A stretch of 64,000 nucleotides of DNA from assembly GCA_027459745.1 (NCBI GenBank), contig DAIDHL010000004.1, positions 79,240 through 143,239 of the forward strand. Direction: 5' to 3'. The stretch comes from Candidatus Levyibacteriota bacterium. GTDB taxonomy: Bacteria > Patescibacteriota > Microgenomatia > Levybacterales > UBA12049. The translations under genes were made by a program, and so were the position numbers. The notes under the pieces were generated by a model. The model was not told the DNA's origin and searched no databases. It saw nothing but the letters and a program-made list of their open reading frames with translations. Positions 4,921-26,433 of the stretch are shown piece by piece (the first letter of the stretch is position 1; each line of letters opens with the position of its first letter).

Positions 4921-6267
4921 GTGAAATCTATTTTAATTCTGCTTATTGTGTTAGTAATCGCGGCAGCTGCATCTTTAACTGGCGGTTTTAGCACATTTTT
5001 ACAACCGGTAAATCAAGCCAGCTTGGGATCTATAAGTACTACAATTACCGGCACTTCTACTGGATCAAATAGTTCAACCACTTTAAATGATACCTCCAAA
5101 AGTTTTACACCCGGATCTTTGGTCGGAGATACCATAACCATTAATACCGGCACTGGTGCAGGAGAGTCGGCCACTATAACTTCCAATACGAATAATCAAG
5201 TTACTGTTGATAAACCCTGGCCAACTACGCCTGATACGTCATCAAAATACACAATTACTACTCCTGGCGCAGGAGCTTCGGCAAGTAGCGGAAGTGTAAT
5301 ATTAAAACCTGCACCAAATCAGAATGGACAACAACTCCAATTGAATACTTTTACAATGATTACAATGACACCAACTACAGCACCAACTCCCGCAACAGCT
5401 TGTGTATCTACCGATGGGCCTCGAACCGCTAATTGTTCCTGCAGACCTCCAAGTGTGATCGCAGTAACCTGTAACTCCGGTAACACAACTCCAAGCGTGT
5501 ACTTAGGCCACATGATAAATGAAACATGTCCAGATGAGGGTTTCCCTTGTCAAGATGTGAACCCAATATACTTATCCGGATTAAGCTGTACTCCGACAAG
5601 TTGTGTTTATCTGAAAGATAGTTTAGTAATTCCTGGCTACTATACAATACCTGCAAACCCAAACTATTCTAAATATGAAAATTGCAACAATGTTGCAAAT
5701 GTTTGTTTTGATAAACCTGTCATATATTTATATTCTGATAGAATTATAAAAAATGTGTCAGTAAAACTCGTTATTCCCGGGAGAATTTCCAAAAGCATAC
5801 CTAGCTATCCAGCAGAAGGCTGGAACAATATTACAGTTATACCAGGAGGGATAATAAAATTTAACAATACCCTATATAATGAATTATTTTATGAGACGAA
5901 TGTAAACAGAGTACCTAACTTAAGTACGGGTTATGTATATCCTATCAAAAATTTATCTACAAACTTAAATCAACTTGTAACAAACTTGGGACTTAAACAA
6001 TCTGAGCGAGATGAATTTATTAATTATTGGCTACCGAAGCTTTATGCATTAGATAAGCCATATATATACGTAGGTGTTCTTTCTGGACAAATAAAAGATA
6101 GTGTGGATAAAATAGTTATCTATCCTAAACCTGATGCCACAATTGCTTTTCTGACATTATTCAAAGGACTTGATACAGATATCTCAATCACAGCCCCCAA
6201 ACTACCTATAATTCCTGAACGTAAGGGTTTTGTTATGGTAGAATGGGGAGGAGCGATAGCAAACTAG
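4921..6267 (+). CDS. secreted or cell-surface hypothetical protein (signal anchor, S/T-rich linker, Cys-rich module, C-terminal domain)
   Basis: Apparent GTG start; a hydrophobic N-terminus is followed by a Thr/Ser-rich low-complexity stretch, a cluster of 8 or more Cys, and many N-x-S/T sequons. Confidence 0.5.
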   Translation: MKSILILLIVLVIAAAASLTGGFSTFLQPVNQASLGSISTTITGTSTGSNSSTTLNDTSKSFTPGSLVGDTITINTGTGAGESATITSNTNNQVTVDKPWPTTPDTSSKYTITTPGAGASASSGSVILKPAPNQNGQQLQLNTFTMITMTPTTAPTPATACVSTDGPRTANCSCRPPSVIAVTCNSGNTTPSVYLGHMINETCPDEGFPCQDVNPIYLSGLSCTPTSCVYLKDSLVIPGYYTIPANPNYSKYENCNNVANVCFDKPVIYLYSDRIIKNVSVKLVIPGRISKSIPSYPAEGWNNITVIPGGIIKFNNTLYNELFYETNVNRVPNLSTGYVYPIKNLSTNLNQLVTNLGLKQSERDEFINYWLPKLYALDKPYIYVGVLSGQIKDSVDKIVIYPKPDATIAFLTLFKGLDTDISITAPKLPIIPERKGFVMVEWGGAIAN

Positions 6268-6936: not shown

Positions 6937-9342
6937 TTATTTAGTTAGAATAAGTTGTCCATTAGCGTCAACACTTATAACTATTTTATCACCTCTATTA
7001 ATCTGATCCTGTAGTTTGGCTTTGGCAAGTAAATCTTCTATATTATCTTGGATATACCGGCGCATCGGACGGGCACCGAATTCTAAATCAGCACCTTCTT
7101 TAACTATCTTATCAATCACCTTCTCATTAAAACTCAAACCAATATCTAATGTGGCCATTTGTTGAATAATATCATTTAATATTAACTTCACTATCTGTGT
7201 TAATTCTGCCGGTCCTAATGGTGAAAAAGTAATCACATCATCAAAACGGTTGAGTAATTCGGGACGAAAAATCTGATTTTGCTGTAGATACTCCAGTAGC
7301 TTTTGCTGAAATACTTTATCAATTTTTTGTCCAGCTACCAGATTTTCCCGTACAAATTCTGCTCCTGCATTTGAGGTAGCTATAATAATACTATTTACAA
7401 ACGTCACTGTTCTACCTTTGTTATCGGTCAAGCGTCCATCTTCTAACACCTGCAGGAACAAATCAAGAATTTTGGGGTGCGCTTTTTCAAATTCATCAAG
7501 TAAAACTAAAGAAAACGGATGGTCATGAATTTTATCGGTTAATTCTCCCCGTTCGTTACCTTCACCTGGAGCTGAACCTAACAAACGTCGTTCTCCGTCT
7601 ATATCAGAATATTCCGACATATCCAGCCTGATCATATTTTGCTCACCACCAAAATACACTGATGCTAAAGCTTTGGCTGTTTCTGATTTACCCACACCAG
7701 TAGGACCTAAGAACAAAAAGGAAATTGGCCTGTTTTGAGTTGTTAAACCAGAGCGCAAACGTCTTAGAGCTTCAGCAATAGCAGAAATAGCTTGTGTCTG
7801 GTCAATTACCTTCTCATGTATTTTATCTTCCAGATGTAATAATAAATCCTTTTCCTCTTTAGTAGGCGCCCCAACATTCACCTGAGTTTTTAGACTAATT
7901 TGAGCTTCTACATCGCTTGCTAAAACCACTTTCTGTTTTGATTTACTTAGATAGTGGGATTTGGGGGATATCGCCACACTGTTGGCTGCATCATTGAGTA
8001 AATTTACTGCGCTGCCGGGTAAAACCGCATCTTGTTCATAACGATCAGCTAAATTAATTGCGGTAAGTACCGCATGGTAGCTTAGATATACTCCATTTTT
8101 GTTCTCAATATCTTCAGTCTTGGCTATTAACATTTGTATAGCAACATCTTTATTGGGTTCTGGTACATTGATTAATGTGAATACCTCATGCAGGGGATTT
8201 TGCTGCATGTAAGTCTTGTAATTCCCAGGCGACATACTGGCAATAATGGGCAAAAATCCTGTTTGCAAATAAGGAAGAAGTGCCCCTGACAAATCAATAG
8301 CATATGAGCTGGCACCCATCAAATTTTCAAACTCGGGAATATACAAAATTACATTACGAGCATGTGAAACTTCAGCCACTATAGACTCTAAACGCAATTC
8401 CAGATCACTACGATTTTCTGCTCCCGCAATCAAAGGTCCCACCATCAGTTGTAATATCTTCTTATGGTTCAAAAAACCCGATAAATTAGAATAATAACTA
8501 TCATTAGCCAACTGGGCTACCAAATTCTCCTTCCCCACTCCATCCTCACCTACTAATAATACATTGTTGTTATCTCCTTTACTTAGAGCCTCCAATAAAG
8601 CCCGATACTGATCATCTCTCCCAACTAAAGATGGTGCTATTCCCCGATAACTAAAATCTTGAGTGTAGTTTTTGGTCTCTGGAGTCCAACCGTTTACTAT
8701 TCCTTCACCTATTCCTTCGCCTGTAAAATTCATACGGATTGGCTGAGGATACTCTTCTGATTTAAACTTATAACGTGCCCATAATAATATTTGTAAAAGC
8801 TCCTCTGGCTTGATTTCATGATTAAAAAGAGTTTTAGTTTGATCTTCGGTTAAAAGTAAATATGCTACTAGTGCATCCATAGTCGTGATATATTTCCCGT
8901 TAATTTGCTCTACTATTTCTGCTGCTTTAGCTAAAACCTGATCAACTTTTATTTCAACTAATTTAATTTCTTCTACGGGAATGGCAGATTTTTCTAAAAT
9001 AAAAAATGCTTGCGAGGTTCTTAATAATTTATGTACAAACTTAGCTAATACAATTGTTGAAAAAATAATCTGTAATAAATCTCTGCTAGTAGACAGTGTC
9101 CACTTACCCTTTTCATTTTTCGCCACAGTTAAAGTAGGCTGAACTAAATACACATGAAAGCGAAAGAACAACTCTGATATGACAAACCAAACAAAGACAA
9201 ACAATGGAAGGCTAACCGATAATTTATGATTTAACTGGTTGAAAAATAACAGAATTACAAACACAAAAATCAAAGTCCTAACCGAACGCATTAAGGCAGA
9301 AGTGTAAAATATTTTTAATTTAACAAGACCTTCTATATTCAT
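6937..9342 (-). CDS. membrane-anchored Hsp100/Clp-like AAA+ protein with a degenerate first nucleotide-binding domain and an intact second one
   Basis: Two N-terminal TM helices. NBD1 has GEDGVGKENL in place of GxxGxGKT and ILYIPEFEN in place of the hhhhDE Walker B. NBD2 is canonical (LGPTGVGKSETAKALA, LVLLDEFEKAH, TSNAG, RPELLNRFDDVITFSPL). Confidence 0.8.
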   Translation of the reverse strand: MNIEGLVKLKIFYTSALMRSVRTLIFVFVILLFFNQLNHKLSVSLPLFVFVWFVISELFFRFHVYLVQPTLTVAKNEKGKWTLSTSRDLLQIIFSTIVLAKFVHKLLRTSQAFFILEKSAIPVEEIKLVEIKVDQVLAKAAEIVEQINGKYITTMDALVAYLLLTEDQTKTLFNHEIKPEELLQILLWARYKFKSEEYPQPIRMNFTGEGIGEGIVNGWTPETKNYTQDFSYRGIAPSLVGRDDQYRALLEALSKGDNNNVLLVGEDGVGKENLVAQLANDSYYSNLSGFLNHKKILQLMVGPLIAGAENRSDLELRLESIVAEVSHARNVILYIPEFENLMGASSYAIDLSGALLPYLQTGFLPIIASMSPGNYKTYMQQNPLHEVFTLINVPEPNKDVAIQMLIAKTEDIENKNGVYLSYHAVLTAINLADRYEQDAVLPGSAVNLLNDAANSVAISPKSHYLSKSKQKVVLASDVEAQISLKTQVNVGAPTKEEKDLLLHLEDKIHEKVIDQTQAISAIAEALRRLRSGLTTQNRPISFLFLGPTGVGKSETAKALASVYFGGEQNMIRLDMSEYSDIDGERRLLGSAPGEGNERGELTDKIHDHPFSLVLLDEFEKAHPKILDLFLQVLEDGRLTDNKGRTVTFVNSIIIATSNAGAEFVRENLVAGQKIDKVFQQKLLEYLQQNQIFRPELLNRFDDVITFSPLGPAELTQIVKLILNDIIQQMATLDIGLSFNEKVIDKIVKEGADLEFGARPMRRYIQDNIEDLLAKAKLQDQINRGDKIVISVDANGQLILTK

Positions 9343-9671
9343 AACTTAATAAAAAATAACCCCAACGAAGCTATCGGTAATATCACAAAACCGCAAATAA
9401 ATAAAAATTCCAAACATAGTAACATAACAAACATTAACATAGAGATTAGAATGAGAACTGTCTTTATAAACATTCCCATGCCTATGGAAAATCCAACCAA
9501 ACCTTGACGATATTCGTTTTTGATCGGTTGAAAAAATGTTCTGAATAATAAACTCAGAGAAAACAAACGCAGAAATGATGTATTTAAAGAAGAAAAAAAT
9601 GATAATAAACCAAGTGGAGCGTTAACATACCAAAATTTCAAGAATTCGACTGGCAGTAATGAATATTGCAT
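9339..9671 (-). CDS. small polytopic membrane protein
   Basis: 110 aa and almost entirely hydrophobic; it overlaps the downstream AAA+ gene by 4 bp, so translational coupling is likely. Confidence 0.4.
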   Translation of the reverse strand: MQYSLLPVEFLKFWYVNAPLGLLSFFSSLNTSFLRLFSLSLLFRTFFQPIKNEYRQGLVGFSIGMGMFIKTVLILISMLMFVMLLCLEFLFICGFVILPIASLGLFFIKL

Positions 9672-9736: not shown

Positions 9737-11818
9737 TCATTGACATTCAAAGGTACATAATTGCAACCCACCCGCACCATGTGAACATTTACTTATAACC
9801 TTACATCCTGGTAAAGCCGTATTGGCCTGCTGTAATAAATCCGCAGGAATCTTCCATTCAAGCAAATAATTGCCGGTTTGTGAGATATCGGTCGAATAAG
9901 GTCCAAGCGCCGTGCCGTTGGATAATTGTGCTGTCAGCTGTAGCTGACCAAAGCTAAAGTCAAAAAAACTAGCCCCGCCTGTAGTATCGGTAACCCCGCT
10001 AAATTGTTGACCCCCAGAGCTTAAAGTTAAACTTACATTCGCAATTCCTTCATTGCCATCATAATAGCCGTTATTATTGTTATCAGTATACACAATAACC
10101 TTCATGGATAAATTGGCTGACGGTGTCGCTGAAAGACTAACCGTGCCGTCAGGACTTAAGGTAGGCGACGAGGTTATACCTTTGGCTGACAGAGGTTGAC
10201 TGCTGCAAGCTGGAGAGACCTCAGTCCTATTCAAACAAACTGCTCCTTGTTGGGTATTTACGGGTTGTTGATCCATTTCTGTAGCTTGTAATGCTTTCTC
10301 TACATTAATACAATTATCTGAATAGCCACCATATAAATCATTACACGCCAATAACATATCAATATACATATCCGAAAAATTCGCAGATGGAATTAGATAA
10401 TGTGTCAAAGCCCGATATTGAATCTGATAACTGGCACTACCAATACCATTAATCTGACAACCATTAAAACTACCACCCTGTGTCATTAAATAAAATGCTT
10501 TATTCATAATTCCTTCATTAGTATGAATACCGCCACTATCCTGACTATCACAAATGTATAGTGGTGAAAAAAGCTTATCCGGCTGTCCTGTTAAAGTCGG
10601 ATCATTTAAGTATCTAAAAGGAGTTTTTACACCAGTGAGATGTACATCTTCACCGATCGACCAGTTATGATCAAGACCCGTAGCAAAAATGTCTGAATTA
10701 CTTTCGTTTAAAGCTCCTGACTGATAACTATAGATTAAGCCTGCTGTATAATGTGTCACAGCATGAGTTAATTCATGTGCAACAATATCCAACACATCCA
10801 TGCCCGCACATAATTCAATCCCTCCATCGACATAAGCTGAATTAGGACAAGGAAACCCTGCAATATCTGCCCTATTAACATAACCAAACAATGTAGCGCC
10901 TTTATTATCGATACTGTCACGATTAAAATTATTGAAATAGAATTTATAAACTTTTCCGAAAATATCATAAAGTTTATTCACATCTAAATTTGCGGAAGAC
11001 GACTGACCTTCTGTACGACTCACCACACAATTATCTGAGCTATTACAATTACTAATATTGCGTGATAACAATGTTTCTACCTGATTTTCCTGATAAACAA
11101 TTTCCCCACTGACTAAATCCACAAAATAACGCTTTGCAAAACTTATGGGTTTGGTCTTTGAAGTAACCAATACAGCTAAAACATGGTAGGTTGTACCATC
11201 AGCGCTCAGTCCTAGAGCCTGTAGATTTAGTAAATATTCCTGCTCTTCATTCACGGTCAAACTCAAATTGGGATTCTCTTTTCGTGCCTGATTCAGAGCA
11301 ATTGTTTTTGCTTTTTGGTGATTAATTTGCGTGAATAACGTACTAGGCTGCTTTGTAACAACAACCCCTGCCGCAGCATATATCTCATCCGTGTGCTGAA
11401 TATGAATTGCAATAATACCGTCATAGACAGGAATATTATCGATAGTTTGTTGATAAAAATAATGCTCTGTTCCGGGCAGGTAATCAGTAGGATTTTGCTT
11501 GTCAATCATACTTCTTTGCAGTACTACATTGGAAAATGTATTCAAACCACTACCAAAAATTTTATTGGGATTTGCTCGAATAAAATCTAACGCAGCTGAT
11601 TGCCCTTGTTGATTTGATTTATATAAATAACCGCTTTGTGTATAAAGCGAAAAGGCATTGTCATTGCCATGGGTTACACTATATGAATCTTTTCCTAAAA
11701 TCTCGCTATTAATTGTAACTTGATTAAATACATAAGTTATTAACGAAACGATGGTTAATAGTATAAAAGCTGGAATAAACCAGTATTTTTTTAAATACTG
11801 TATTACTTTCTCTTTCAT
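9737..11818 (-). CDS. membrane-anchored extracytoplasmic thermolysin-family (M4) zinc metalloprotease
   Basis: N-terminal signal anchor; IVAHELTHAVTHYTAGLIYSYQSGALNESNSDIFA matches the thermolysin HEXXH...NExxSD active-site region; the C-terminal region is Cys-rich. Confidence 0.85.
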   Translation of the reverse strand: MKEKVIQYLKKYWFIPAFILLTIVSLITYVFNQVTINSEILGKDSYSVTHGNDNAFSLYTQSGYLYKSNQQGQSAALDFIRANPNKIFGSGLNTFSNVVLQRSMIDKQNPTDYLPGTEHYFYQQTIDNIPVYDGIIAIHIQHTDEIYAAAGVVVTKQPSTLFTQINHQKAKTIALNQARKENPNLSLTVNEEQEYLLNLQALGLSADGTTYHVLAVLVTSKTKPISFAKRYFVDLVSGEIVYQENQVETLLSRNISNCNSSDNCVVSRTEGQSSSANLDVNKLYDIFGKVYKFYFNNFNRDSIDNKGATLFGYVNRADIAGFPCPNSAYVDGGIELCAGMDVLDIVAHELTHAVTHYTAGLIYSYQSGALNESNSDIFATGLDHNWSIGEDVHLTGVKTPFRYLNDPTLTGQPDKLFSPLYICDSQDSGGIHTNEGIMNKAFYLMTQGGSFNGCQINGIGSASYQIQYRALTHYLIPSANFSDMYIDMLLACNDLYGGYSDNCINVEKALQATEMDQQPVNTQQGAVCLNRTEVSPACSSQPLSAKGITSSPTLSPDGTVSLSATPSANLSMKVIVYTDNNNNGYYDGNEGIANVSLTLSSGGQQFSGVTDTTGGASFFDFSFGQLQLTAQLSNGTALGPYSTDISQTGNYLLEWKIPADLLQQANTALPGCKVISKCSHGAGGLQLCTFECQ

Positions 11819-11890: not shown

Positions 11891-14800
11891 TTAAACTATA
11901 CCTGTTTGATCAGAATCACCATTGCTCATCAATGCAGCCGATGAAACTGCTGGTGGAGCGAATGTCATACCAGTAGCGCTGAGTGGCATAGATGTCGGAG
12001 TCATAGAAGAAGCTGATGGTATTTGATCTACTGTAGTAACTGACGGAACTGGGGTCAAACCTGCTACTGGATTTACTTGAGGTATGGAATTCACTCCACT
12101 ATCAAGCGTAGGAGCAGTGTTCGGGCCAACATTATTTATAGAATTTGTATAACTCTGTGCAATATCTCCAATAGTCTGCATTAACGGCTGGCTATCAGAA
12201 CTTGAAAGATCTGAGGGAGCTTGTTTAGATGTACTAACAGCTGGTGTTTCAGTTAAAGGTTGCTCAACTTGCGCTTGTATATTAGGAGTAGTATTGGGAT
12301 TTAATGAATTAACAACCTGATTCGATTGAGAAGTAGTATCGATAGTGGTGGCAGTAGTATTAGATACTGATGCAGTAGGACTATTTACTGTTTGTCCGAC
12401 AGCTTGAGGTTGCGGTTGTAATTTGGTAAAACTAAACTCCGATTTCTGTTGATCGTAATCAATTTTGATGATATCTCCAGCTACAAATGTTTTGTTAATA
12501 ATCATCATGGCAATTGGATTTTCAATAGCTGACTGGATCAAGCGACGTAATGGACGTGCTCCATATTGCGGATCATACCCTTCTTTAGCTAAGACCTCCA
12601 GTGCCCCATCCGTAATTTGCAAAGAGAAGCCCTGATCTTTAAGTAATTTATTAGTCTTTTCCACACCTAATTTAGCAATATATTTCATGTCTTGCTGTCT
12701 CAACGGTTGGAACATAATAATCTCATCAAAACGATTTAATAACTCAGGACGGAAAAATTTATGCAAATCGTCGGAAACTTTGGCCTGCATTTCTTTATAC
12801 ATTTTTTGATACTCTTCGGGTGTTTTGGTTGGTTTGGACAATTGATCCTGAATGTCCTGACTACCAATGTTGGAAGTAGCTATCACTATAGTATTTTTGA
12901 AAGAAATTGTATTACCTTTATTGTCTGTTAAACGTCCATCCTCCAATAGTTGTAACAAAATGTTAAATACATCAGGATGAGCTTTTTCAATTTCATCTAG
13001 TAAAACGATCGAATAAGGCTTTGCACGCACAGCTTCGGTCAATTGTCCTCCTTCTTCATAACCCACGTAACCTGGAGGTGCTCCTATTAATTTCGCAACC
13101 TCATGTTTTTCCATATATTCTGACATATCTAATCGCACCATGGCGTCATCTCGACCAAATAAAATTTCGGCTAATGTTTTGGCCAATTCGGTTTTTCCTG
13201 TACCAGTGGGCCCCAGAAAGATGAAAGAAGCAATCGGACGATTGGCTGCGGCCAGACCAATTCTTCCTCTTCTGACTGCTTCTGCAACTCCGTTGACTGC
13301 TGGTTCTTGATCAATCAATCGCATATGAATACGCTTTTCTAGCTCTAATAATTTTTGACTTTCATCTTCTGTTAATTTGGTAATAGGAATTCCTGTCCAA
13401 GCACTAACTACCTTTTCGATATCAGAGCGTTGGATGGTGTTATCTTGGCGTTTTCCAGCAGACATTTGCAACTTCACTTCCGCAGCTGCCTCGTCCAATA
13501 AATCTACTGCCTTGTCGGGCAAATAGCGTTCACCAATATATTTTTTAGATAATTTAACAGCCTGTTTTAAAGCATCATCTGGGATAGTAACATGATGATA
13601 ATTCTCATATTTGGTTTTTAATACTTGCAGCATTTTTACCGCAGTTTCCTCATCCGGTTCCTCCGCTATGATGGGCTGGAAACGGCGAGCAAAAGCTTTA
13701 TCTTTTTCAAAATACTTTCTGTATTCTGATGTTGTAGTGGTACCGATAATTTGTAATTGTCCACGAGCTAAATTCGGTTTAATGATATTAGAAGCATCCA
13801 AAGCACCCTCATTATCCCCCGTACCAATTAATGTGTGAATTTCATCAAAGAACAAGATCACTTGTCCTCCACTTGACATGGTGTCTTTCATTACACTGCG
13901 TAGTCTTTCTTCAAACTCCCCTCTATGACTAGCGCCTGCTACTAGTGATGAGACATCAATTTGAATAATCTTTTTGTTTTTCAACTCTTCAGGAACATTA
14001 CCTGACACAATCGCCTGAGCCAAACCCTCTACAATAGCCGTCTTACCCACACCAGCTTCACCAATAATAATTGGGTTATTTTTGGTCCTACGTAATAGAA
14101 TATGCACTAATCTATCAACTTCTTTTTCTCTACCTGCAACTGGATCTAATCCACCTTCTTTAGCTTTTTCTGTTAAATCTACACCAAATTTATCTAATAC
14201 TGACTTTCTTCCTTCAGTATAGGCGGATGATTTTTCCAACTTTGCCACAACTTCATCTTTTCTCACACCTTGGGCTTGCAATGTCGCACCACTAGAGGAG
14301 GGGAAAATTGCTAACAAAATGTCTTCCGGAGCGATAAACGAACTACTACGCTCCTTTGCAGACGTAAAAGCAGTTTCAAAGATTTGTTTAACTTGATCAC
14401 TCAAAGTTGGTTGGCCCGTAAAAGTACCTGGTGTTTCCTTGGTTTGTACTTCACGTGATAACTTAGCTACATCTACCTTAAATTGCTCCAATAGCTTATA
14501 GATCTCAGTATCGTATAGCAGACCAAATAGTAATTGTTCAGGCATGATAACTGCCTGCTGAACGCGCATTGCTTCTTGTTTGGCATGCATTAAGACCTGC
14601 ATAGAACGACTATCTAAATGAGAAAGCGCCGACAAATCTTCTCGACGTGAAGGATCCATTGCCGCACTATTGGCTGTAGCGGGAGCAGCGATGGGAATTG
14701 AGGGAGAAGTAGGAGCAGTTGTAGTTGTGGTGCTAGTCTGTTGGAAAGTCTGAGTAGGTAAAGCCATCGCAGCAACAGGAGCAACTACCACTGGCCCACT

Positions 14801-14944
14801 GGCACTAATAGTTGCAGAGCTACTTTGAGTGGTTTGTGTGGTTTCTGTCACAGGAGGAATTCCAGCTGATTGATCAGTAGATACACCATTATCATTAGTC
14901 TTTGTACCACCAAATAAATTTCCCAACATATATCTATTGTTCAA
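11891..14944 (-). CDS. clpC: ClpC/ClpB-like Hsp100 AAA+ unfoldase with long low-complexity N- and C-terminal extensions
   Basis: Two Clp_N repeats, NBD1 GEAGVGKTAIVEGLAQ, a short UVR-like middle domain, NBD2 GPTGTGKTELAKTLA, and the sensor and arginine-finger motifs. No [IVL]GF ClpP-docking tripeptide was found. The N-terminal roughly 100 aa and C-terminal roughly 250 aa are S/T/P/Q-rich. An annotated TTG start is followed by the first ATG five codons in. Confidence 0.9.
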   Translation of the reverse strand: MNNRYMLGNLFGGTKTNDNGVSTDQSAGIPPVTETTQTTQSSSATISASGPVVVAPVAAMALPTQTFQQTSTTTTTAPTSPSIPIAAPATANSAAMDPSRREDLSALSHLDSRSMQVLMHAKQEAMRVQQAVIMPEQLLFGLLYDTEIYKLLEQFKVDVAKLSREVQTKETPGTFTGQPTLSDQVKQIFETAFTSAKERSSSFIAPEDILLAIFPSSSGATLQAQGVRKDEVVAKLEKSSAYTEGRKSVLDKFGVDLTEKAKEGGLDPVAGREKEVDRLVHILLRRTKNNPIIIGEAGVGKTAIVEGLAQAIVSGNVPEELKNKKIIQIDVSSLVAGASHRGEFEERLRSVMKDTMSSGGQVILFFDEIHTLIGTGDNEGALDASNIIKPNLARGQLQIIGTTTTSEYRKYFEKDKAFARRFQPIIAEEPDEETAVKMLQVLKTKYENYHHVTIPDDALKQAVKLSKKYIGERYLPDKAVDLLDEAAAEVKLQMSAGKRQDNTIQRSDIEKVVSAWTGIPITKLTEDESQKLLELEKRIHMRLIDQEPAVNGVAEAVRRGRIGLAAANRPIASFIFLGPTGTGKTELAKTLAEILFGRDDAMVRLDMSEYMEKHEVAKLIGAPPGYVGYEEGGQLTEAVRAKPYSIVLLDEIEKAHPDVFNILLQLLEDGRLTDNKGNTISFKNTIVIATSNIGSQDIQDQLSKPTKTPEEYQKMYKEMQAKVSDDLHKFFRPELLNRFDEIIMFQPLRQQDMKYIAKLGVEKTNKLLKDQGFSLQITDGALEVLAKEGYDPQYGARPLRRLIQSAIENPIAMMIINKTFVAGDIIKIDYDQQKSEFSFTKLQPQPQAVGQTVNSPTASVSNTTATTIDTTSQSNQVVNSLNPNTTPNIQAQVEQPLTETPAVSTSKQAPSDLSSSDSQPLMQTIGDIAQSYTNSINNVGPNTAPTLDSGVNSIPQVNPVAGLTPVPSVTTVDQIPSASSMTPTSMPLSATGMTFAPPAVSSAALMSNGDSDQTGIV

Positions 14945-14956
14945 TTTTTTTTTGTA

Positions 14957-14979
14957 TTAGTCAAGCTGACTAATCATGC
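14957..14979 (-). promoter_or_regulatory. palindromic TTAGTCAAGCTGACTAA element, 14-30 bp upstream of the clpC-like start, sharing a 12-mer with the hrcA upstream region (26391-26402)
   Basis: A perfect 7-3-7 inverted repeat. On the coding strand it contains TTGACT (-35-like). The identical TTAGTCAAGCTG occurs upstream of the hrcA operon. Confidence 0.35.
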
Positions 14980-15019: not shown

Positions 15020-17935
15020 TTAGGAATAATCTTTTGTTTCTGGTTTTGTATCTACTTGTTTATCATCTTTTACAGATTTTTCACTTTGTTCTTCTCCATA
15101 AGCCTTAAGAGGCATATCTAAATGTTGTTCCAGTGTGTTCTCTTGAGTCTTACTGGCCCTTTGAGATAACAGAGTATCTTCTTCCTCTTCTTGCTTGCCT
15201 AAAGTAGCCAAGACTTCTTTGGCAGCTTGTGCTTTGGCCTTTAAGTAAGCCACGATTTCTGATTGAGAGAAACCACCAATCAAGAGGAAAGGCAGAATAC
15301 CTGATACACGCTGCATACCCTGACTTACTTGCAATTGATCTGGAGAAGAAAGCAATGAAATTGTCTCCGTTATCTCTTCGATATCTGACTGTAACCATGA
15401 TTTACGATCATTAATTCGGCCATCCAAAGTTTCTGGAACATCCATGCTGGTATAGTTATCAGACCACATTTGTCTGACTGCTTCGTAATCTTCAATACTT
15501 ACAGTTTGAATACGATTGGAAGTAGGTAAATTAGCAGAAGCACCTGATGTTTGTACTCCATTCTGGGCCAAGAGCTCCAATACCTTTACGGCCAAAGGAT
15601 CTCCTTTTTGCTTAGCTTCACGCAAAGACTTTAACAGACGTTGCACTTGCGCAATAATATCGGGAGATTGTGTCGAATTTAATAACTCAGTAGCTAATTT
15701 ATTTCCTTTGCGGCTTTCTTGTTTAAGCTGTTCGTGTAACTTCGTCACGGTGGGTAAATCTAACTTGCCTTTTTGTGAAACTAACTTGCTTGCAGCCAAG
15801 ACATTTACCGCTACAGGATTATTGCGCGTACTTTCCTGATGCAATGCCTGCACAAGAGTGGTTAAGGTTGAAGGCATGTTAGTCGTAGATTGCGTAGCAA
15901 TTTTTTGAATCATTTGGGAGATACTTTCAATCTCGGTCTTATTTATAGTGTTCATGGTCGAGACAACCAGAGAAGCAGTGGCGTTTCCTTTTTCGCTCTG
16001 TTCCACGATGGTTTGACGTATCTCATTGGCTTTAGTCCTCTCCATTTGAGTCGTAGCGTTAGTGGGATTTAAGATTGTGTTCATAGTTTGCTGTACCGTG
16101 TTTGCCGTCTGTTTACTGACAGTAGTAGCTGTGGCTAAGGTCGCTGCTTGCAGAATATTTTTGGCCAATACATTGCCCTTCTGACTCTCCACCATCAATC
16201 TCCCTCTGATCTGCCGATATGTATCCTGCTGGGCACCCATTGCACTAGTAGGGTTGGCAATTTTAGCCAAAGTCTGTTCATAACGCATGGAAGTAGGTGA
16301 AGACTTATTACTCATCATGCTCTTTTCGAATTGAGCAATATCTCGCATCGTGGGGACATTAAGACTGGTCAATTTCGTGATGTCCGAATTAATTTTTACG
16401 GGTAACTGGACAGGTTGATTACGTCTAATATCCACGTTCACAGGCACTTTGAAGTTCGCACCAAAGGGCAATGATTTAGCCAGCCCAGCCGGCTTATATT
16501 TACCTGGTGGCTGAGGAGCAGCAGGCGCTGGTGGAGGAGGATTAAACAAAGTTGGACTTCTAGCTATCAATTGCTGAACCCAAGCATTTTCATTAATTGA
16601 GAACGAGTTTAGATAGTCAAGGAAGATCTGTAATAGAATAAAAGGCAATAAAATCACTACCCACAACATCATCAAAGCTACCACATATTCGGCGAAGGTT
16701 TCAATATAATTCACGCTGTTATTAATGCCAACCTGTTGTTTCGGACCACCAAGTAAGATATTTATAGCGGTAGGAAATCTATCTAATAATTGAGGTGATC
16801 CAGCCTTAAAAGTTGAGGGATCCTGTCCACCTAAGACAGCCGAAGAGTTATAAGTCTCACCAGCTAAATCGGTATGTGTATAGTCTGTAAAGTTAAGTGG
16901 AATGTAATGAACCCATACACTTACTAACCCTGCTAGTAAAATTGAAAATAAAGGCGCGTATAATAACCAACGAAAGAACTCGCCTATCCATATTTTAGCA
17001 GTATTACGAACAGGACTAAAAAACAACAGTAACGGAAAGACCGGAGACAAAATAATAAAAAACCACATGATAATCTTACGCAGTAATAAAATCCCTACCA
17101 TTACGTAGTAGGTAATGGCTGTTAACTTAACTAATAATAAAGCAATAAAAGCAGATTCTGTAGAGTTAGGATCCGCCAAACGCAAACCGACAAAAGTAGC
17201 ATAATCCCATCCTACAAATAACAGATCTTTTTGCGAAATGTTATTGGGGGCATATGTAGGACTCTTAAGGAAAAATAGCTGAACGATATCTCCAAGCTGA
17301 TAAAGAAATTGAATAATACTCCAGGAGAAATAGACTAGAACTACAATAACGACAAAGCGAATCATGAAACGTCTTACGGTCAAGCTTCTGCCTCGAGTGG
17401 CAATGATAACAATAGCCGCAATAATCAAGACTACAGCCAATAAAGCATATACTATTTCGCTAATAGTCGCCCAAAAAATCTGTAATGGATTTTGCGATGC
17501 AGCTCCTACACTTCCTGGTATCAAATATACCCAGCTAAAATTTTTTGCATTTAAAGTCCAGTCAAGTAGGAGCCCAGCGCGGGCTGCATTTTGTCCAACA
17601 AATGTTACCTCACTATCTGGCACATATGTACCCGTGGGAACTGGCGTAGTACCAATTGAGATTGCCCCTCCTCCCCCTGGTACAGTAGTAGTAGGCGTGG
17701 GGGTGGCAGTAGGAGTCATAGTGGGTGTGGGTGTAGAGGTAGAGACTGCAACAATAGTATTACATGTCCCAACTCCGCCCGCACCAATAATACAAGTCTG
17801 CGTATTGCCTGGAGGTACACTATCGCATCTTATTGCATTTGTTCCACAGGTAGTATAACTAGCAAAAGTATGTGAAAAACTAAACGAAAATAATAATATG
17901 AATAAACCGATTACTATGGGCAGTTTTTTAAGCAT
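15020..17935 (-). CDS. giant polytopic membrane protein, VirB6/TrbL-like architecture
   Basis: Signal peptide, a Cys-rich plus TPT-rich linker, about 6-8 TM helices, a poly-Pro stretch (NPPPPAPAAPQPPG), and a roughly 400-aa hydrophilic tail carrying repeated [QE]KGN/KGD alpha-helical motifs. It lies downstream of a pilin-like gene. Confidence 0.45.
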   Translation of the reverse strand: MLKKLPIVIGLFILLFSFSFSHTFASYTTCGTNAIRCDSVPPGNTQTCIIGAGGVGTCNTIVAVSTSTPTPTMTPTATPTPTTTVPGGGGAISIGTTPVPTGTYVPDSEVTFVGQNAARAGLLLDWTLNAKNFSWVYLIPGSVGAASQNPLQIFWATISEIVYALLAVVLIIAAIVIIATRGRSLTVRRFMIRFVVIVVLVYFSWSIIQFLYQLGDIVQLFFLKSPTYAPNNISQKDLLFVGWDYATFVGLRLADPNSTESAFIALLLVKLTAITYYVMVGILLLRKIIMWFFIILSPVFPLLLFFSPVRNTAKIWIGEFFRWLLYAPLFSILLAGLVSVWVHYIPLNFTDYTHTDLAGETYNSSAVLGGQDPSTFKAGSPQLLDRFPTAINILLGGPKQQVGINNSVNYIETFAEYVVALMMLWVVILLPFILLQIFLDYLNSFSINENAWVQQLIARSPTLFNPPPPAPAAPQPPGKYKPAGLAKSLPFGANFKVPVNVDIRRNQPVQLPVKINSDITKLTSLNVPTMRDIAQFEKSMMSNKSSPTSMRYEQTLAKIANPTSAMGAQQDTYRQIRGRLMVESQKGNVLAKNILQAATLATATTVSKQTANTVQQTMNTILNPTNATTQMERTKANEIRQTIVEQSEKGNATASLVVSTMNTINKTEIESISQMIQKIATQSTTNMPSTLTTLVQALHQESTRNNPVAVNVLAASKLVSQKGKLDLPTVTKLHEQLKQESRKGNKLATELLNSTQSPDIIAQVQRLLKSLREAKQKGDPLAVKVLELLAQNGVQTSGASANLPTSNRIQTVSIEDYEAVRQMWSDNYTSMDVPETLDGRINDRKSWLQSDIEEITETISLLSSPDQLQVSQGMQRVSGILPFLLIGGFSQSEIVAYLKAKAQAAKEVLATLGKQEEEEDTLLSQRASKTQENTLEQHLDMPLKAYGEEQSEKSVKDDKQVDTKPETKDYS

Positions 17936-17936
17936 A

Positions 17937-18368
17937 TTAATTTATTTTGTGATATTCGTAATCTGAATTCTTCACATACTGATCATTTTTATATAGTTGA
18001 ATCCACTTTTTTTCTTGCCCTACCGGGACTGTAACTTCAAAAACAATATCTGAACCAGTTTGGCTATAACTACCATTGGAGTTATATTGTATGAGTCTTG
18101 CAGGTTCTGCATTCTCCAAGAATAAGCTTACTGCTTCATTATAATTAGTATTATCCACTGTAACTAAAATCTTACCCGGCACATAAGGTGATAAGCCAAT
18201 AATTCTATAAATTCCAGTTTGATAGACAAAAGATGGGTTATTAAAAACATACAAATAAAGAATGAACATAAATAATGTAACAAAAACTCCAAATAAAAAG
18301 CCCGTAACAAAAGAGTACTTACGCTTGGATGGCTGTGAAATTTTTATTGGCATAACTTTATGCTCCAA
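17937..18368 (-). CDS. small bitopic membrane protein (one TM helix plus a C-terminal soluble domain)
   Basis: 143 aa with a single hydrophobic helix near the N-terminus; it is coupled to the flanking genes by 2-nt and 11-bp junctions. Confidence 0.45.
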   Translation of the reverse strand: MEHKVMPIKISQPSKRKYSFVTGFLFGVFVTLFMFILYLYVFNNPSFVYQTGIYRIIGLSPYVPGKILVTVDNTNYNEAVSLFLENAEPARLIQYNSNGSYSQTGSDIVFEVTVPVGQEKKWIQLYKNDQYVKNSDYEYHKIN

Positions 18369-18666
18369 ACCCTGGCAATTTTAAGATATCGACCAAAACA
18401 ATCTGGATAAACAAATAGCCAAAAATGGCTAATAATAATCCGGCAATCGCATAGTATAAATAACTTTTACCATTACGTAGTGCGGCTGGATCTCCTTGCG
18501 AAGTTAAGAGAATATATGCACCATAAAGAATAAAGATCAAGGACAATCCACCCATAATACTCAAACCAATCCCATAAAACTTTTCTGCAAAGGCAACGGG
18601 ATCAGTAGGTATACAACCGAAATCAGTTGTGATTCCAGTTCCTCCATTTGGCAAAGTACACTGCAT
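18358..18666 (-). CDS. T4SS pilin-like small protein (VirB2/TrbC-like or Gram-positive T4SS_pilin-like)
   Basis: 102 aa with two hydrophobic helices separated by a short polar loop (GIGLSIMGGLSLIFILYGAYILLTSQGDPAALRNGKSYLYYAIAGLLLAIFGYLFIQIV), typical of conjugative and T4SS pilins. It is the first gene of the operon. Confidence 0.5.
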   Translation of the reverse strand: MQCTLPNGGTGITTDFGCIPTDPVAFAEKFYGIGLSIMGGLSLIFILYGAYILLTSQGDPAALRNGKSYLYYAIAGLLLAIFGYLFIQIVLVDILKLPGFGA

Positions 18667-19223
18667 AATATAACGTTAGCAGAGATAGCCAATAAAAACA
18701 ATATTATGACGGCTAAATTTGTTAAATTAACTTAACTGCTCATAACAAAAAAACACTCCCAGCTGAATAGACTGAGAGTGTTTGAGATTTTGAAAATAGT
18801 ATTTGTAAAAGAAATTTTTGCAATCATTAAATAAGTTATCTTGGTATAACCGTTTCAATATTATCTCGCCCTATTAAGCTTATATTGCTGAACAGTCTTT
18901 TGATTTATAGATAAGTTAATTTAGATTCCAAATATAGATTTTGTGTAGCCTTCTTGGTTATTATTGTAAAACTTTATAGCTGAATGACCCAAATTAATCT
19001 TATCAATATTGAGAATAATGATATTATTTGTTATCGAACAGGATATTATATTTCAAACAACAACAAATTCAAAAATTTCTTTATATATTCCTTTTTCCTT
19101 GTACCTCCTTCTGATAAGAATCATATCAGTCATTACTGAAAAATGACTTAATAATTTATAATATTTCTAACTAACCCTGAGCTTGTATTGTCCTAGAGTA
19201 ATTGACATAATTACCCCTCTCAA

Positions 19224-20807
19224 ATGTCAAAAGTTGAATTGCCCTCAAAAATAAGAAAAGCAATTACAGATTTCACTATTGGAACTGGCGGCGAAGAAAG
19301 ATTGCCAGTTCATCATATAATTCCTGAAGGTAATTTTGTCAGAACAGATAATGGAAATAACATTTTTCGCGAAGGCGCCAAACTGTTTGGCGTTTTTGTT
19401 AATAAGTCAGTACGATCAACTCTCACGCTCAATCCAGCTCCCCACGTACCAGACAAAATACCAGCAGAAATTGTAAAGGAAGCCTCTTCTAGAAAATTTG
19501 GCTTTATACCTGATTTAGGAGATCTAACCCAAATTGGCCCTCATTTAGTAGCTTGGTGGCAAAAACTTGATACACCATCTGAATCTACTGTTGGAGAGCA
19601 AACAGGTTCACGCTGTGACATGCTAGGATTGGCACAACTGCCTGATGAAGAGCGTAAGGATTATTTTGCTGCTATTAGTCAACAAATTGAAAATGGAATT
19701 AATTTAATGGCTGACTGTTTAGGCCTATCAGATAATGAACTCGGGAATCTAAGAGTATATGGTCTATTTGGGCATGCAACCTTAGAAGAACGTAGGCTGA
19801 TGGGTTTAAGTAGAGGTGCACAAAGCGCTCCGGATGGTCATTTAAATATTGTCTATCTACCTGAAGTAACCAGGACAAAAACTATGCCTGAAGATGTAAA
19901 GACAAAAGATATGGTTAAACAGATAGGTGCTTGGGATACCGTAGTTGAAGATCTATTCGGCAGTGGAATACAAAGAGTTATTCAGAGTACAGCTTTGCAT
20001 CGTTTAAATCCACGCGATAGAATTGAAGATAATCCTATATATGTAACTAGAGTCTCCAACAAAACAACTAGTAGTGATTTCTCCCATATGAATTTTTTTG
20101 AAGGATTCAAGATAGGCTTTGATAAGGCTATAACTATAGAGCCGTCCTTAGGCGTACTTACCGATATACTTAAAAAAGGTTCTGACCTCTATTCTGCTGC
20201 TTTATCTAACTATGAGCAATATTATAAAAATATAAAAAATCCTGAGAAGAAAAAAATTATCTTTGATAACTTAAAAGCAAGTGCTAAAGCGTTTGGTTTT
20301 CCCAATAATATGGCCGATGAATTTGCAAAATTTGTATTCTCCATAAAACCCACACATGGTCAGCTAGATAAATGGATTAAAGAGCTAGAAATTGATCAAC
20401 AGCCAAAAAATACTGCCGCAGATATTTTTAAAATTGAAGATAGTAGTTTGCTAAATCTAAAAAAAATTAAGCGTTTTTATGAAAATATGGCTAAAAGATT
20501 GAATGCTACTGGAGGCAGGGAAAGAGTAAAGAAACATCTTCAAGAAGCAAAAAAATTATCTCCTCTAGATGCAGATTTATTTTTATCAGTTATAGAAGAC
20601 AGATTCAAATTAATGGATGATCGCTCAAATAATATCTCCTCCATCATGGCTCCTTTCCTTTCCGGTAGTTATATGCTTGATTACGTAAGAGATACAACGG
20701 GGAGAATTATGGTTAAAGGGATATCACTGAGCACACGATTGGGTACAGATAAAGGTGTGGTAGAAGATTTAGGTGGTTACGTAATTGACCGTGCTACAGC
20801 TGCGTAA
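19224..20807 (+). CDS. hypothetical cytoplasmic protein (527 aa) with no recognisable domain
   Basis: Long ORF with no signal peptide, preceded by a 557-bp AT-rich intergenic region; a 7-bp inverted repeat spans its start codon. Confidence 0.6.
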   Translation: MSKVELPSKIRKAITDFTIGTGGEERLPVHHIIPEGNFVRTDNGNNIFREGAKLFGVFVNKSVRSTLTLNPAPHVPDKIPAEIVKEASSRKFGFIPDLGDLTQIGPHLVAWWQKLDTPSESTVGEQTGSRCDMLGLAQLPDEERKDYFAAISQQIENGINLMADCLGLSDNELGNLRVYGLFGHATLEERRLMGLSRGAQSAPDGHLNIVYLPEVTRTKTMPEDVKTKDMVKQIGAWDTVVEDLFGSGIQRVIQSTALHRLNPRDRIEDNPIYVTRVSNKTTSSDFSHMNFFEGFKIGFDKAITIEPSLGVLTDILKKGSDLYSAALSNYEQYYKNIKNPEKKKIIFDNLKASAKAFGFPNNMADEFAKFVFSIKPTHGQLDKWIKELEIDQQPKNTAADIFKIEDSSLLNLKKIKRFYENMAKRLNATGGRERVKKHLQEAKKLSPLDADLFLSVIEDRFKLMDDRSNNISSIMAPFLSGSYMLDYVRDTTGRIMVKGISLSTRLGTDKGVVEDLGGYVIDRATAA

Positions 20808-20862
20808 CTTATCCTCACCAAACTATTATCAAACCTTAATAAATATATATTAGAATAAATGT

Positions 20863-21774
20863 ATGAGGTATTTAATTTCCGCAGTATTATTAAGCATTAT
20901 TTTGATTTTTATTCTCATCAATCTACCCAAGATTAACTCTCAATCCTTCCAAACTAATATAACCTCACCATCATCCTCGATTTCCTCCATAAAGATACCT
21001 AATTTCAGTCATATTGTTTTAATCATAATGGAAAATAAACCGTTAAGTTCATTGCAAAATAATCCTTCAGCCAGTTATATCAACCAACTTGCGAAACAAT
21101 ATGCCTACGCAAATAATTATTCGGCCGTCACTAATCCAAGCTTGCCCAATTATTTAGCTTTAATAGGCGGAAGTACTTTTGGTATCAAATCCGATTGTAC
21201 AAATTGTTTCTTAAATAAAACTAATTTAGTCGATCGCTTACAAACCTCACATATAAGCTGGAAAGCTTATATGGAATCAATGCCTCATAGTTGTTATATA
21301 GGCAGTACTAATTTATATGCTCAAAAGCATGATCCATTTATTTATTTTGATGATATAAGGAAAAATCCAGCACGATGTAATAATATTGTACCTTATGCTT
21401 ATCTTAAATCAGATCTTACTTCTATTTCCCCTCCTCAGTTTATTTGGATTACACCCAATATCTGTAACGATATGCATAACTGCTCAATTCAAACGGGCGA
21501 TACCTGGTTATCAAAAAATATACCCAATCTTCTAAAGTCACCAATATTTACGCAGGAAAATTCGTTATTAATTATTACTTGGGACGAAGGAAATATTTAT
21601 AACAACCAAATTGCTACTATTTTGATTGGTCCACAAGTTAAGAAAGGGTATATTTCCAATCAGGAATATACACATTACTCTTTATTGCATACCATTGAGT
21701 CATCCTGGAATTTACAACCTCTTACTTCTAATGATGCTACCAGTCCGGTGATGTCTGATTTTTTCAACAAATAG
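20863..21774 (+). CDS. secreted phosphoesterase-family protein (phospholipase C / acid phosphatase AcpA-like, PF04185-like)
   Basis: Signal peptide, then HIVLIIMENKPLSS and NPSLPNYLALIGGSTFG motifs resembling the PLC/AcpA phosphoesterase family. Confidence 0.65.
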   Translation: MRYLISAVLLSIILIFILINLPKINSQSFQTNITSPSSSISSIKIPNFSHIVLIIMENKPLSSLQNNPSASYINQLAKQYAYANNYSAVTNPSLPNYLALIGGSTFGIKSDCTNCFLNKTNLVDRLQTSHISWKAYMESMPHSCYIGSTNLYAQKHDPFIYFDDIRKNPARCNNIVPYAYLKSDLTSISPPQFIWITPNICNDMHNCSIQTGDTWLSKNIPNLLKSPIFTQENSLLIITWDEGNIYNNQIATILIGPQVKKGYISNQEYTHYSLLHTIESSWNLQPLTSNDATSPVMSDFFNK

Positions 21775-26025: not shown

Positions 26026-26388
26026 TCAAACAACAGATAAATGAGGTAGTCTACTGTTTTTCCATTTTTTTCTTAACAAACTCGCTGCAGTATCTCTCAA
26101 TAATATAACTTGACCTCGTTTAAGTGATCCACCTATATGAATAATATCATCTGGTTTATTTAATTTTTGTAAATATCGGATTATAACCAAACCACTTTCA
26201 TCATTGACTACTCGACCACCTGGCTTCAAACGATCAACAATATTCATTGCCAACATTGAGGCATAAAACCTATGACCTTCTGACAATGCTCCATACCTGC
26301 TTCTGTATGAAGGTTTTATACTTGCTGATGATAATATCTCACGTGCTAAAGCCATAAAAGCCACTGTAGTTTTAGCACTAAAACACAC
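26026..26388 (-). CDS. small hypothetical ORF upstream of hrcA (possible methyltransferase-like remnant)
   Basis: 110-120 aa containing an LKPGGRVV motif, which is common in SAM-methyltransferases, but no complete fold. It may be non-coding leader sequence. Confidence 0.25.
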   Translation of the reverse strand: MCFSAKTTVAFMALAREILSSASIKPSYRSRYGALSEGHRFYASMLAMNIVDRLKPGGRVVNDESGLVIIRYLQKLNKPDDIIHIGGSLKRGQVILLRDTAASLLRKKWKNSRLPHLSVV

Positions 26389-26433
26389 GCTTAGTCAAGC
26401 TGGCATCATATATTTTGTGCTAACATAAATAAA

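Follow-up and report, generated by a model that had tools for sequence, protein, structure and literature searches.

VirB4 is the only ubiquitous protein of type IV secretion systems (T4SS). Patescibacteria reportedly live in dependence on other cells; in the single lineage in which this has been tested, epibiotic growth is said to require T4SS genes. A 2025 survey of the phylum detected VirB4 in 2,417 of 3,035 Patescibacteria assemblies and described their T4SS as chromosomal and relaxase-less (PMC12102498). In Microgenomatia, virB4 usually lies near dnaA, VirB3 and pilin genes are often found apart from virB4, and VirB6 is "scarce," "suggesting extreme sequence divergence" (PMC12102498). In the R388 system, the stalk stands on a pentameric VirB6 base in the membrane; VirB2 is recruited by helix 1 of VirB6, and assembly takes place on the upper surface of VirB6 (PMC9259494). 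Here, we analyze a 64-kb stretch of contig DAIDHL010000004.1 from a Candidatus Levyibacteriota bacterium (positions 79,240 to 143,239; this whole stretch is referred to as the window) and identify in it a gene pair encoding a VirB2-like pilin and an extended VirB6-like protein. The two proteins are related to T4SS components by homology and fold, and their genes are tightly coupled, conserved as a unit across Levybacteria, and have no T4SS ATPase gene nearby. On balance, we read the locus as a chromosomal, vertically inherited T4SS remnant in which the extended VirB6-like protein would act as a platform for the pilin to which it is coupled.

The window carries a single pilin gene and a single VirB6-like gene. 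The initial annotation had described a trio of minus-strand open reading frames (ORFs), and all three lie where it had placed them, in a region of unremarkable base composition and no anomaly in GC content. The features of these genes are as follows (AF2, AlphaFold2; HMM, hidden Markov model; TM, transmembrane):

18358..18666, minus strand: VirB2/T4SS_pilin-like protein, 102 aa (PF18895, orthologue scan, gene order)
17937..18368, minus strand: bitopic 143-aa protein, N-terminal TM helix and a domain of ~100 aa (hydropathy; no family match)
15020..17935, minus strand: extended VirB6/TrbL-like protein, 971 aa (Pfam, hydropathy, alignment, AF2 model)
16541..17644, minus strand: VirB6-like membrane domain, aa 98-465, five long hydrophobic helices (PF04610, AF2, Foldseek)
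15566..16291, minus strand: four helical repeat units, aa ~549-790 (unit HMM)
15146..15523, minus strand: conserved C-terminal helical domain, aa ~805-930 (AF2 model, alignment, HMM)

For comparison, we retrieved 80 related loci (identified by L numbers), which belong to Levybacteria or to unlabelled or mislabelled metagenome-assembled genomes (MAGs) sharing one gene order; all comparative data are from this one order-level lineage. The scan for relatives covered one genome per species, and the loci were checked for T4SS genes to 10 kb around the pair. The 971-aa protein has 609 detectable relatives, mostly 1200-1600 aa long, and the plausibly named sources are all Patescibacteria, mostly Levybacteria. 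The scan of one genome per species gave relatives in 193 genomes. Complete Levybacteria chromosomes with the module include OY970292.1, OZ246394.1, and CAZDOJ010000001.1. Searches of IMG/VR viral contigs and of 72,556 PLSDB plasmids gave no relatives. Among L005-L079, many MAG records titled "uncultured Gammaproteobacteria bacterium" carry the Levybacteria-type locus in the same gene order, as do a few titled Sulfotelmatobacter, Limnocylindrales, or Lysobacterales; these titles look like placeholder or wrong taxonomy.

Several lines of evidence support the proposal of the initial annotation that the 102-aa protein is a two-helix T4SS pilin. A hydropathy scan places hydrophobic helices at aa ~29-56 and 68-100, and the loop joining them is short and positively charged (R64, K67). 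Two Cys residues near the N terminus, C3 and C18, are conserved. PF18895 is the best match of the window protein and, in an orthologue-by-orthologue Pfam scan in which matches were counted at E ≤ 0.01 (73 pilins and 78 VirB6-like N-terminal domains), it is matched by 69 of the 73 pilin orthologues with a best E value of 6e-8, while PF04956 (TrbC/VirB2) is matched by three. In NCBIfam, the window pilin has a weak match to a pilin-like family of integrative and conjugative elements (ICEs). The ORF encodes no signal or leader peptide and cannot be extended upstream; about two-thirds of the orthologues begin at the same position, directly after a promoter-like motif, and a minority have an N-terminal extension. 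In 72 of 77 loci, the pilin gene directly precedes the VirB6-like gene, with a median gap of 4 nt. One clade (L011, L013, L018, L024, L026, L030, L036, L038, L042, L043, L048, L056, and L075) has a second, larger pilin-like ORF of 239-473 aa between metS and hrcA, which is without an equivalent in the window; this larger ORF lies upstream of hrcA on the opposite strand, and in L001 it has a weak match to PF18895.

The pair, not the trio, is the conserved unit. The 143-aa gene of the window has a TTG start, overlaps the pilin stop codon, and encodes a protein without a Pfam or NCBIfam match. Among the 80 loci, homologues occur only in L004, the closest relative of the window (83% identity), and weakly in L005. 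It represents a lineage-specific insertion that separates the pilin gene from the VirB6-like gene.

The 971-aa protein consists, in order, of a signal peptide, a Thr/Pro-rich linker, a membrane domain, a Pro-rich linker, helical repeats, and a C-terminal domain. The signal-peptide-like segment spans aa 1-26, and the linker that follows it is predicted to be disordered. The signal peptide agrees with the architecture initially proposed, as do a polyproline segment (PPPP at aa 466) and the KGN/KGD motifs (QKGN at 585, EKGN at 648, RKGN at 742, and QKGD at 776). The proposed six to eight discrete TM helices were not recovered as such: hydropathy gives six hydrophobic stretches between aa 151 and 445, and the AF2 models have five long hydrophobic helices preceded by a conserved amphipathic segment. 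The protein was also proposed to be an extended VirB6/TrbL homologue, and here the family and fold searches concur. PF04610 is the best match of the window protein and is matched by 30 of the 78 orthologues (best E value 1.1e-5), and no other family recurs; for the membrane domain of the window protein, the E value is 4.3e-5 and aa 189-344 align with model positions 26-183. The AF2 model of the membrane domain has a mean local confidence (pLDDT) of 82.4 and a global score (pTM) of 0.80. In a Foldseek search of this model against 350,542 PDB chains, the top three matches are chains of R388 TrwI/VirB6 (8rtd_L, 8rt9_F, and 7o3v_F), with probability 0.97, E values of 0.1-0.28, 303-312 aligned columns, and 14-15% identity, and four further TrwI chains are within the top 22 matches, seven in all. 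The full-length model gave no Foldseek match in the PDB or BFVD, leaving the trimmed membrane-domain model as the sole informative query. Across 74 species, 57 columns of the membrane domain are invariant, and the alignment indicates that the VirB6-like protein is under strong purifying selection.

C-terminal to the membrane domain, the protein continues into a long tail. Its four helical repeat units carry the motifs ANP...ER...ES-KGN-LA-IL and AK-KGD-A. The C-terminal domain is modelled with pLDDT values of 85-96 and has many near-invariant columns; its HMM matches VirB6-like orthologues only, in one to five copies each, and the longer orthologues duplicate the helical repeats together with this domain. 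Neither Pfam, the PDB, nor the viral folds of BFVD yielded a match to the tail. Clp_N-like repeats were considered as an identity for the tail repeats and rejected (hhalign probability 1%). Three features predict a cytoplasmic tail: a five-helix model like that of VirB6, loop charges compatible with the positive-inside rule, and the presence of the same repeats on a ClpB-like protein without a signal peptide (below).

No VirB4, VirD4, or VirB11 was identified by a Pfam scan of every ORF of ≥282 aa in the 64 kb of the window. Similarly, none of VirB3, VirB5, VirB8, and VirB11 was found in the window or in the fetched loci, in which the only related ATPase was the housekeeping FtsK, in four loci. 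The window also encodes no relaxase or coupling protein, and there is no integrase near the pair.

The chaperone and protease context in which the initial annotation had placed these genes is real, and its chaperone part is conserved. Across the 80 loci, the usual order is metS, hrcA-grpE-dnaK-dnaJ, the pilin gene, the VirB6-like gene, the gene for a ClpB-like protein (ClpB-like 1), the genes for a 110-aa multi-TM protein (p110) and a second ClpB-like protein (ClpB-like 2), and nusA-infB. A secreted protein with an SdrD_B domain or of the M4 type is often encoded between ClpB-like 1 and p110. In the window, the genes downstream of the pair are the following:

11891..14944, minus strand: ClpB-like 1, double-ring AAA+ ATPase, 1017 aa (Pfam, NCBIfam)
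9737-11818: M4 thermolysin-like peptidase, downstream of ClpB-like 1 (Pfam)
6937-9342, minus strand: ClpB-like 2, 801 aa, two N-terminal TM helices (Pfam)

Upstream in the window are an inserted gene pair on the plus strand and then dnaJ, dnaK, grpE, and hrcA. The inserted pair (19224-21774) is present only in the window and L004 and encodes a 527-aa protein matching no family and a phosphoesterase (PF04185). Most other loci have the pilin gene after dnaJ, at a median distance of 64 nt, or after dnaK, at a median of 120 nt. In one subclade, dnaJ follows ClpB-like 1, such that the pair lies between dnaK and dnaJ (14 of the fetched loci). ClpB-like 1 is the next gene after the VirB6-like gene, on the same strand and with a median gap of 48 nt, in 64 of 72 loci, and in seven more the two are separated by only one small gene, for a Cys-rich secreted protein. 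L044, L057, L073, and L080 have lost the dnaK context, and in these the pilin, VirB6-like, and ClpB-like 1 genes are still contiguous. The intervening small gene (L016, L020, L022, L034, L037, L064, and L069; gaps of 5-13 nt) is of a kind also present in the window at 4921-6267 on the plus strand, where it encodes a Cys-rich, Thr/Ser-rich secreted protein of 448 aa without a Pfam match (p448). We rejected p110 and p448 as VirB3/PrgI-like or otherwise known proteins, as there was no Pfam match across 57 members. Farther from the pair, the window encodes a 1031-aa ORF with only a weak collagen-repeat match (27232-30327, minus strand; E 0.003) and a class II aminoacyl-tRNA synthetase of the Asp/Lys/Asn type fused to a C-terminal DUF2000 domain (40115-42001, minus strand).

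ClpB-like 1 contains the Pfam domains Clp_N, AAA, AAA_lid_9, AAA_2, and ClpB_D2-small. On the NCBIfam ClpB model (TIGR03346; cutoff 1232 bits), it scores 892 bits and aligns in two stretches: the second ClpB-model stretch starts at position 526 and the first stretch on the ClpV model ends at 416, so that the M-domain segment is apparently skipped. This coiled-coil domain, which interacts with DnaK, is absent from ClpB-like 1 in all orthologues. The spacing of the Walker A motifs is ClpA-like, at 283 aa both in the window protein and as the orthologue median (range 281-470), and there is no ClpP-binding loop. In the D1 pore loop, the window protein has SH for KY, and His replaces Tyr in 57 of 64 orthologues. 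The protein has long S/T/P/Q-rich N- and C-terminal extensions, and orthologues range from 842 to 1513 aa. ClpB-like 2 has a degenerate D1 (GVGKE, PEFE) and a D2 without the GYVG pore loop; it is membrane-anchored and probably does not thread substrates. Its start is overlapped by p110 by 4 nt (both genes, 6937-9671, minus strand), and the two genes are kept together in 48 of the 80 Levybacteria loci.

The strongest connection of the module to its chaperone context, which the initial annotation did not mention, is the tail repeat. In 20 species, the tail-repeat HMM of the VirB6-like protein matches the C-terminal extension of the adjacent ClpB-like 1, with two to four units per protein and per-domain E values of 1e-8 to 1e-38; it matched no other ORF in ~1.6 Mb of Levybacteria DNA. 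By BLASTP, the window tail matches the ClpB-like extension of L038 with an E value of 3e-9, and within the L038 genome the E value of the match between tail and extension is 2e-17. A word-indexed protein search for other architectures of the repeat gave only four matches, one of them a frameshift-split version of the same ClpB-like gene. The ClpB-like 1 protein of the window is itself without the repeat. In a tree of the VirB6-like membrane domain, the species with repeat-bearing ClpB-like proteins form a single clade, indicating one acquisition that was retained over considerable divergence. The confinement of the repeat to two adjacent proteins is suggestive of a functional association, or equally of local recombination between neighbors.

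Two intergenic elements deserve mention in the context of how these genes may be expressed:

18673..18701, minus strand: promoter-like motif TTGTTT, 17 nt, (TG)C-TAACGT, 6 nt, ATG, kept upstream of the pilin gene across species
14956..14974, no strand assigned: perfect palindrome ATTAGTCA-GCT-TGACTAAT, between the VirB6-like stop codon and the ClpB-like 1 start codon

The cross-species form of the first is TTGnnn, 17 nt, TGnTAnnnT, mostly 6 or 9 nt, ATG, and in 49 of 73 orthologous loci TGnTAnnnT ends ≤20 nt (mostly 6 or 9 nt) before the pilin start. A generic promoter scan of the window gave no enrichment over shuffles, and the claim that the motif functions as a promoter is one of cross-species conservation only. 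The abutment of the motif on the start codon suggests a leaderless transcript and that the pilin gene starts a separate, possibly leaderless transcription unit. Just upstream of this motif, at 18751-18783 on the minus strand, is a terminator-like 13-bp hairpin followed by a T run; there is no minus-strand gene directly upstream, and the hairpin may mark the end of an unannotated transcript or be a leader or insulator. In many loci, a further promoter-like motif is present between the VirB6-like gene and the ClpB-like gene. Like the motif at the pilin start and the lack of a canonical CIRCE in the window (below), it argues against simple operon coupling. This gap motif reads CTTGCTnTTT, ~12 nt, TAGTATTTAAT, ends a few nucleotides before the ClpB-like start codon, occurs in L006, L008, L010, L011, L013, L015, L017, L018, L024, L026, and others, and resembles a promoter that would give a transcript whose leader is very short. 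The palindrome is identical in L004 and similar in L061, and may be an operator. Control of the pilin operon by HrcA through CIRCE (controlling inverted repeat of chaperone expression) elements was considered and rejected, as the 64-kb window contains no canonical CIRCE with ≤3 mismatches allowed. At 26340-26425, upstream of hrcA, there are only TTAGCAC and GTGCTAA half-sites at an unusual spacing.

A number of observations weigh against the locus being a T4SS remnant built of a pilin and a VirB6-like platform. The window proteins score below the gathering scores of the families to which we assign them: the pilin matches PF18895 with an E value of 6.4e-4 and 20.2 bits (gathering score 26.6), and the VirB6-like protein matches PF04610 with an E value of 1.4e-4 and 22.1 bits at full length and with 23.8 bits for its N-terminal 540 aa (gathering score 25.9). 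The Foldseek E values of 0.1-0.28 are non-significant alone, and TM-scores are 0.34-0.52 (target-normalised 0.43-0.52). Sequence searches of the PDB with the whole VirB6-like protein, its membrane domain, and the pilin returned only designed helical proteins or TM segments of G-protein-coupled receptors, that is, no VirB6 and no VirB2, and hhalign comparisons of the two family profiles with single Agrobacterium tumefaciens VirB6 and VirB2 sequences gave probabilities of <2%; these failures reflect the strong divergence of the family. Hydropathy alone permits six TM segments, which would place the tail outside the cell. Moreover, VirB4, VirB3, VirB8, and VirD4 are absent within 10 kb in all of the 80 loci, and in the part of Table S1 of the Patescibacteria survey considered here, 17 of 34 Levybacteria assemblies are VirB4-positive, several VirB4-negative ones exceed 1 Mb, and of the genomes bearing the module, L065 is VirB4-positive and L064 and L070 are VirB4-negative (PMC12102498). 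Because the assemblies are MAGs, absence of VirB4 is not proven; its patchy detection nevertheless means that the canonical T4SS partner may be truly missing from many Levybacteria genomes. The earlier statement that a cognate ATPase is lacking holds at the level of the locus, i.e., the window and 10 kb in 80 genomes. With all single-sequence scores under curated thresholds and Foldseek E values summarized as >0.1, the pilin and VirB6-like proteins might be unrelated hydrophobic proteins whose Pfam and Foldseek matches arise from TM-helix composition. We regard such a chance resemblance as very improbable, since the same two T4SS families recur over dozens of orthologues with no competing family, seven TrwI/VirB6 chains rank within the top 22 fold matches, and the two weak matches fall in adjacent, translationally coupled genes. 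The HMM searches that the initial annotation had proposed as a check (PF18895, PF04956, and PF04610) leave the window copies below threshold and still speak for the assignment through matches recurring across orthologues. Each line is weak singly; taken together, and including two T4SS matches in genes with a median gap of 4 nt, they make VirB2 and VirB6 homology the only reasonable reading.

Given this homology, the alternatives concern what the pair has become. The lack of an ATPase, relaxase, or coupling protein near T4SS-derived genes would fit a decaying chromosomal remnant of a mobile conjugative element, either an ICE or a plasmid. However, the purifying selection and ordinary GC content, together with the lack of an integrase nearby, speak against decay of such an element, and the conserved synteny effectively refutes it; because the pair occupies the same site in most of the 80 loci and has no relatives in plasmids or IMG/VR, it is a core chromosomal module and not a mobile-element remnant. 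A second alternative is that the pair was exapted as an envelope or proteostasis scaffold that forms neither filament nor channel and, for instance, anchors chaperones or proteases at the membrane. The position of the locus between hrcA-grpE-dnaK-dnaJ and two ClpB-like genes, and in the 14 loci mentioned even between dnaK and dnaJ, is in line with this idea, as is the presence in the cluster of secreted M4 or SdrD_B proteins and of a membrane-anchored, degenerate ClpB-like protein with its small membrane protein. We nevertheless consider it improbable: the pilin gene is preceded by a conserved promoter-like motif of its own, the window contains no canonical CIRCE, and the simplest explanation for the strong conservation of the VirB6-like core and its VirB2-like partner is the ancestral function as pilin and platform. 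Somewhat less improbable, and still doubtful, is a machine in which the VirB6/VirB2-like pair has been uncoupled from VirB4 and partnered with a dedicated, M-domain-less Clp/Hsp100 ATPase. The ClpB-like protein would dock via the shared repeat or via the tail, its task being the extraction, unfolding, or feeding of substrates or pilin, and VirB4 would no longer be needed. The near-constant adjacency of the ClpB-like gene, its contiguity with the pair in the four loci without the dnaK context, the restriction of the repeat to the two neighbors, including its match within a single genome, the loss of the DnaK-interacting M domain in all orthologues, and the patchy detection of VirB4 in the part of the survey table considered all favor such a coupling. 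Set against them, the repeat-bearing ClpB-like proteins are one clade and trace to one event, possibly a local domain transfer; the ClpB-like protein of the window has no repeat; many loci have the separate promoter-like motif in the gap; and the VirB6-like and ClpB-like genes have been separated on at least three occasions (by the p448 insertion and in L028 and L066). Finally, because all data are from one order-level lineage with syntenic housekeeping flanks, the adjacency, like much of the synteny, may reflect common descent and not selection.

For the T4SS remnant that we favor, we suggest the following model. By analogy with R388, the VirB6-like domain would oligomerize in the cytoplasmic membrane, and the oligomer would serve as a docking and assembly platform from which the pilin polymerizes into a surface filament or conduit. 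The ~500-aa tail, with its repeats and end domain, would extend into the cytoplasm and offer a scaffold for docking. Energy could be provided by a patescibacterial VirB4 encoded elsewhere or by the neighboring ClpB-like AAA+ protein, and the filament or conduit could function in contact with other cells or a host. If the second energy source applied, an unfoldase would drive or service a T4SS-derived surface machine, and this would be the first T4SS-derived apparatus coupled to an Hsp100 ATPase; the shared repeat provides a testable hypothesis for how the module is energized or regulated. The family is a strong candidate for the VirB6 component that has gone largely undetected in Microgenomatia, a gap that it may fill for Levybacteria. 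In this group, the pilin and its platform are retained together as core, vertically inherited genes at a distance from virB4.

The Levybacteria protein resembles VirB6/TrbL proteins (PF04610; R388 TrwI, PDB 7o3v, 8rt9, and 8rtd) in its polytopic helical membrane domain, over ~305 columns, and in that its gene adjoins that of a VirB2-like pilin. It differs from R388 TrwI in that identity is only 14-15% and the match is below the Pfam gathering score, and from VirB6/TrbL proteins generally in its cleavable-looking signal peptide and Thr/Pro-rich N-terminal linker, in a C-terminal extension of at least ~500 aa with novel helical repeats and an often duplicated end domain, and in the location of its gene, which is core chromosomal and without adjacent VirB5, VirB4, or VirB3. 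A VirB6-like membrane domain with a large hydrophilic C-terminal extension is also found in F-like TraG. The same combination occurs in the Rvh VirB6 paralogues of Rickettsiales (PMC2653234). By contrast to Rvh VirB6 and TraG, the Levybacteria extension is unrelated in sequence and has a repeat in common with a Clp-type ATPase; also, Rvh VirB6 and TraG sit in full T4SS gene sets including VirB4, and the Levybacteria pair does not. Dedication of a ClpB-family double-ring AAA+ ATPase to a secretion apparatus has a precedent in ClpV (TssH) of type VI secretion. The likeness is one of analogy only: ClpB-like 1 reaches 696 bits on the ClpV model (TIGR03345; cutoff 885), whereas it scores best on the ClpB model, has a Clp_N domain, matches the ClpA model in one stretch with the same domain spacing, and is not accompanied by type VI secretion genes. 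A role of ClpB-like 1 in secretion is hypothetical. Also close to the module are the MPF-FATA-derived T4SS of Patescibacteria (PMC12102498), with which it shares the phylum, the PF18895 pilin family, the chromosomal location, the lack of a relaxase, and the dispersal of T4SS genes that is frequent in Microgenomatia. Unlike the virB4/dnaA-centered loci of that survey, the pair lies at a distance from any virB4 and occupies a conserved site between dnaK/dnaJ and clpB, and within the part of the survey table considered it is present in VirB4-negative as well as VirB4-positive assemblies (PMC12102498). Altogether, patescibacterial T4SS, VirB2-like pilins, and extended VirB6 proteins are known kinds; new are the divergent family, the constancy of its chromosomal site, its tail architecture, the occurrence of the tail repeat in a Clp ATPase, and its persistence in assemblies with no detectable VirB4.

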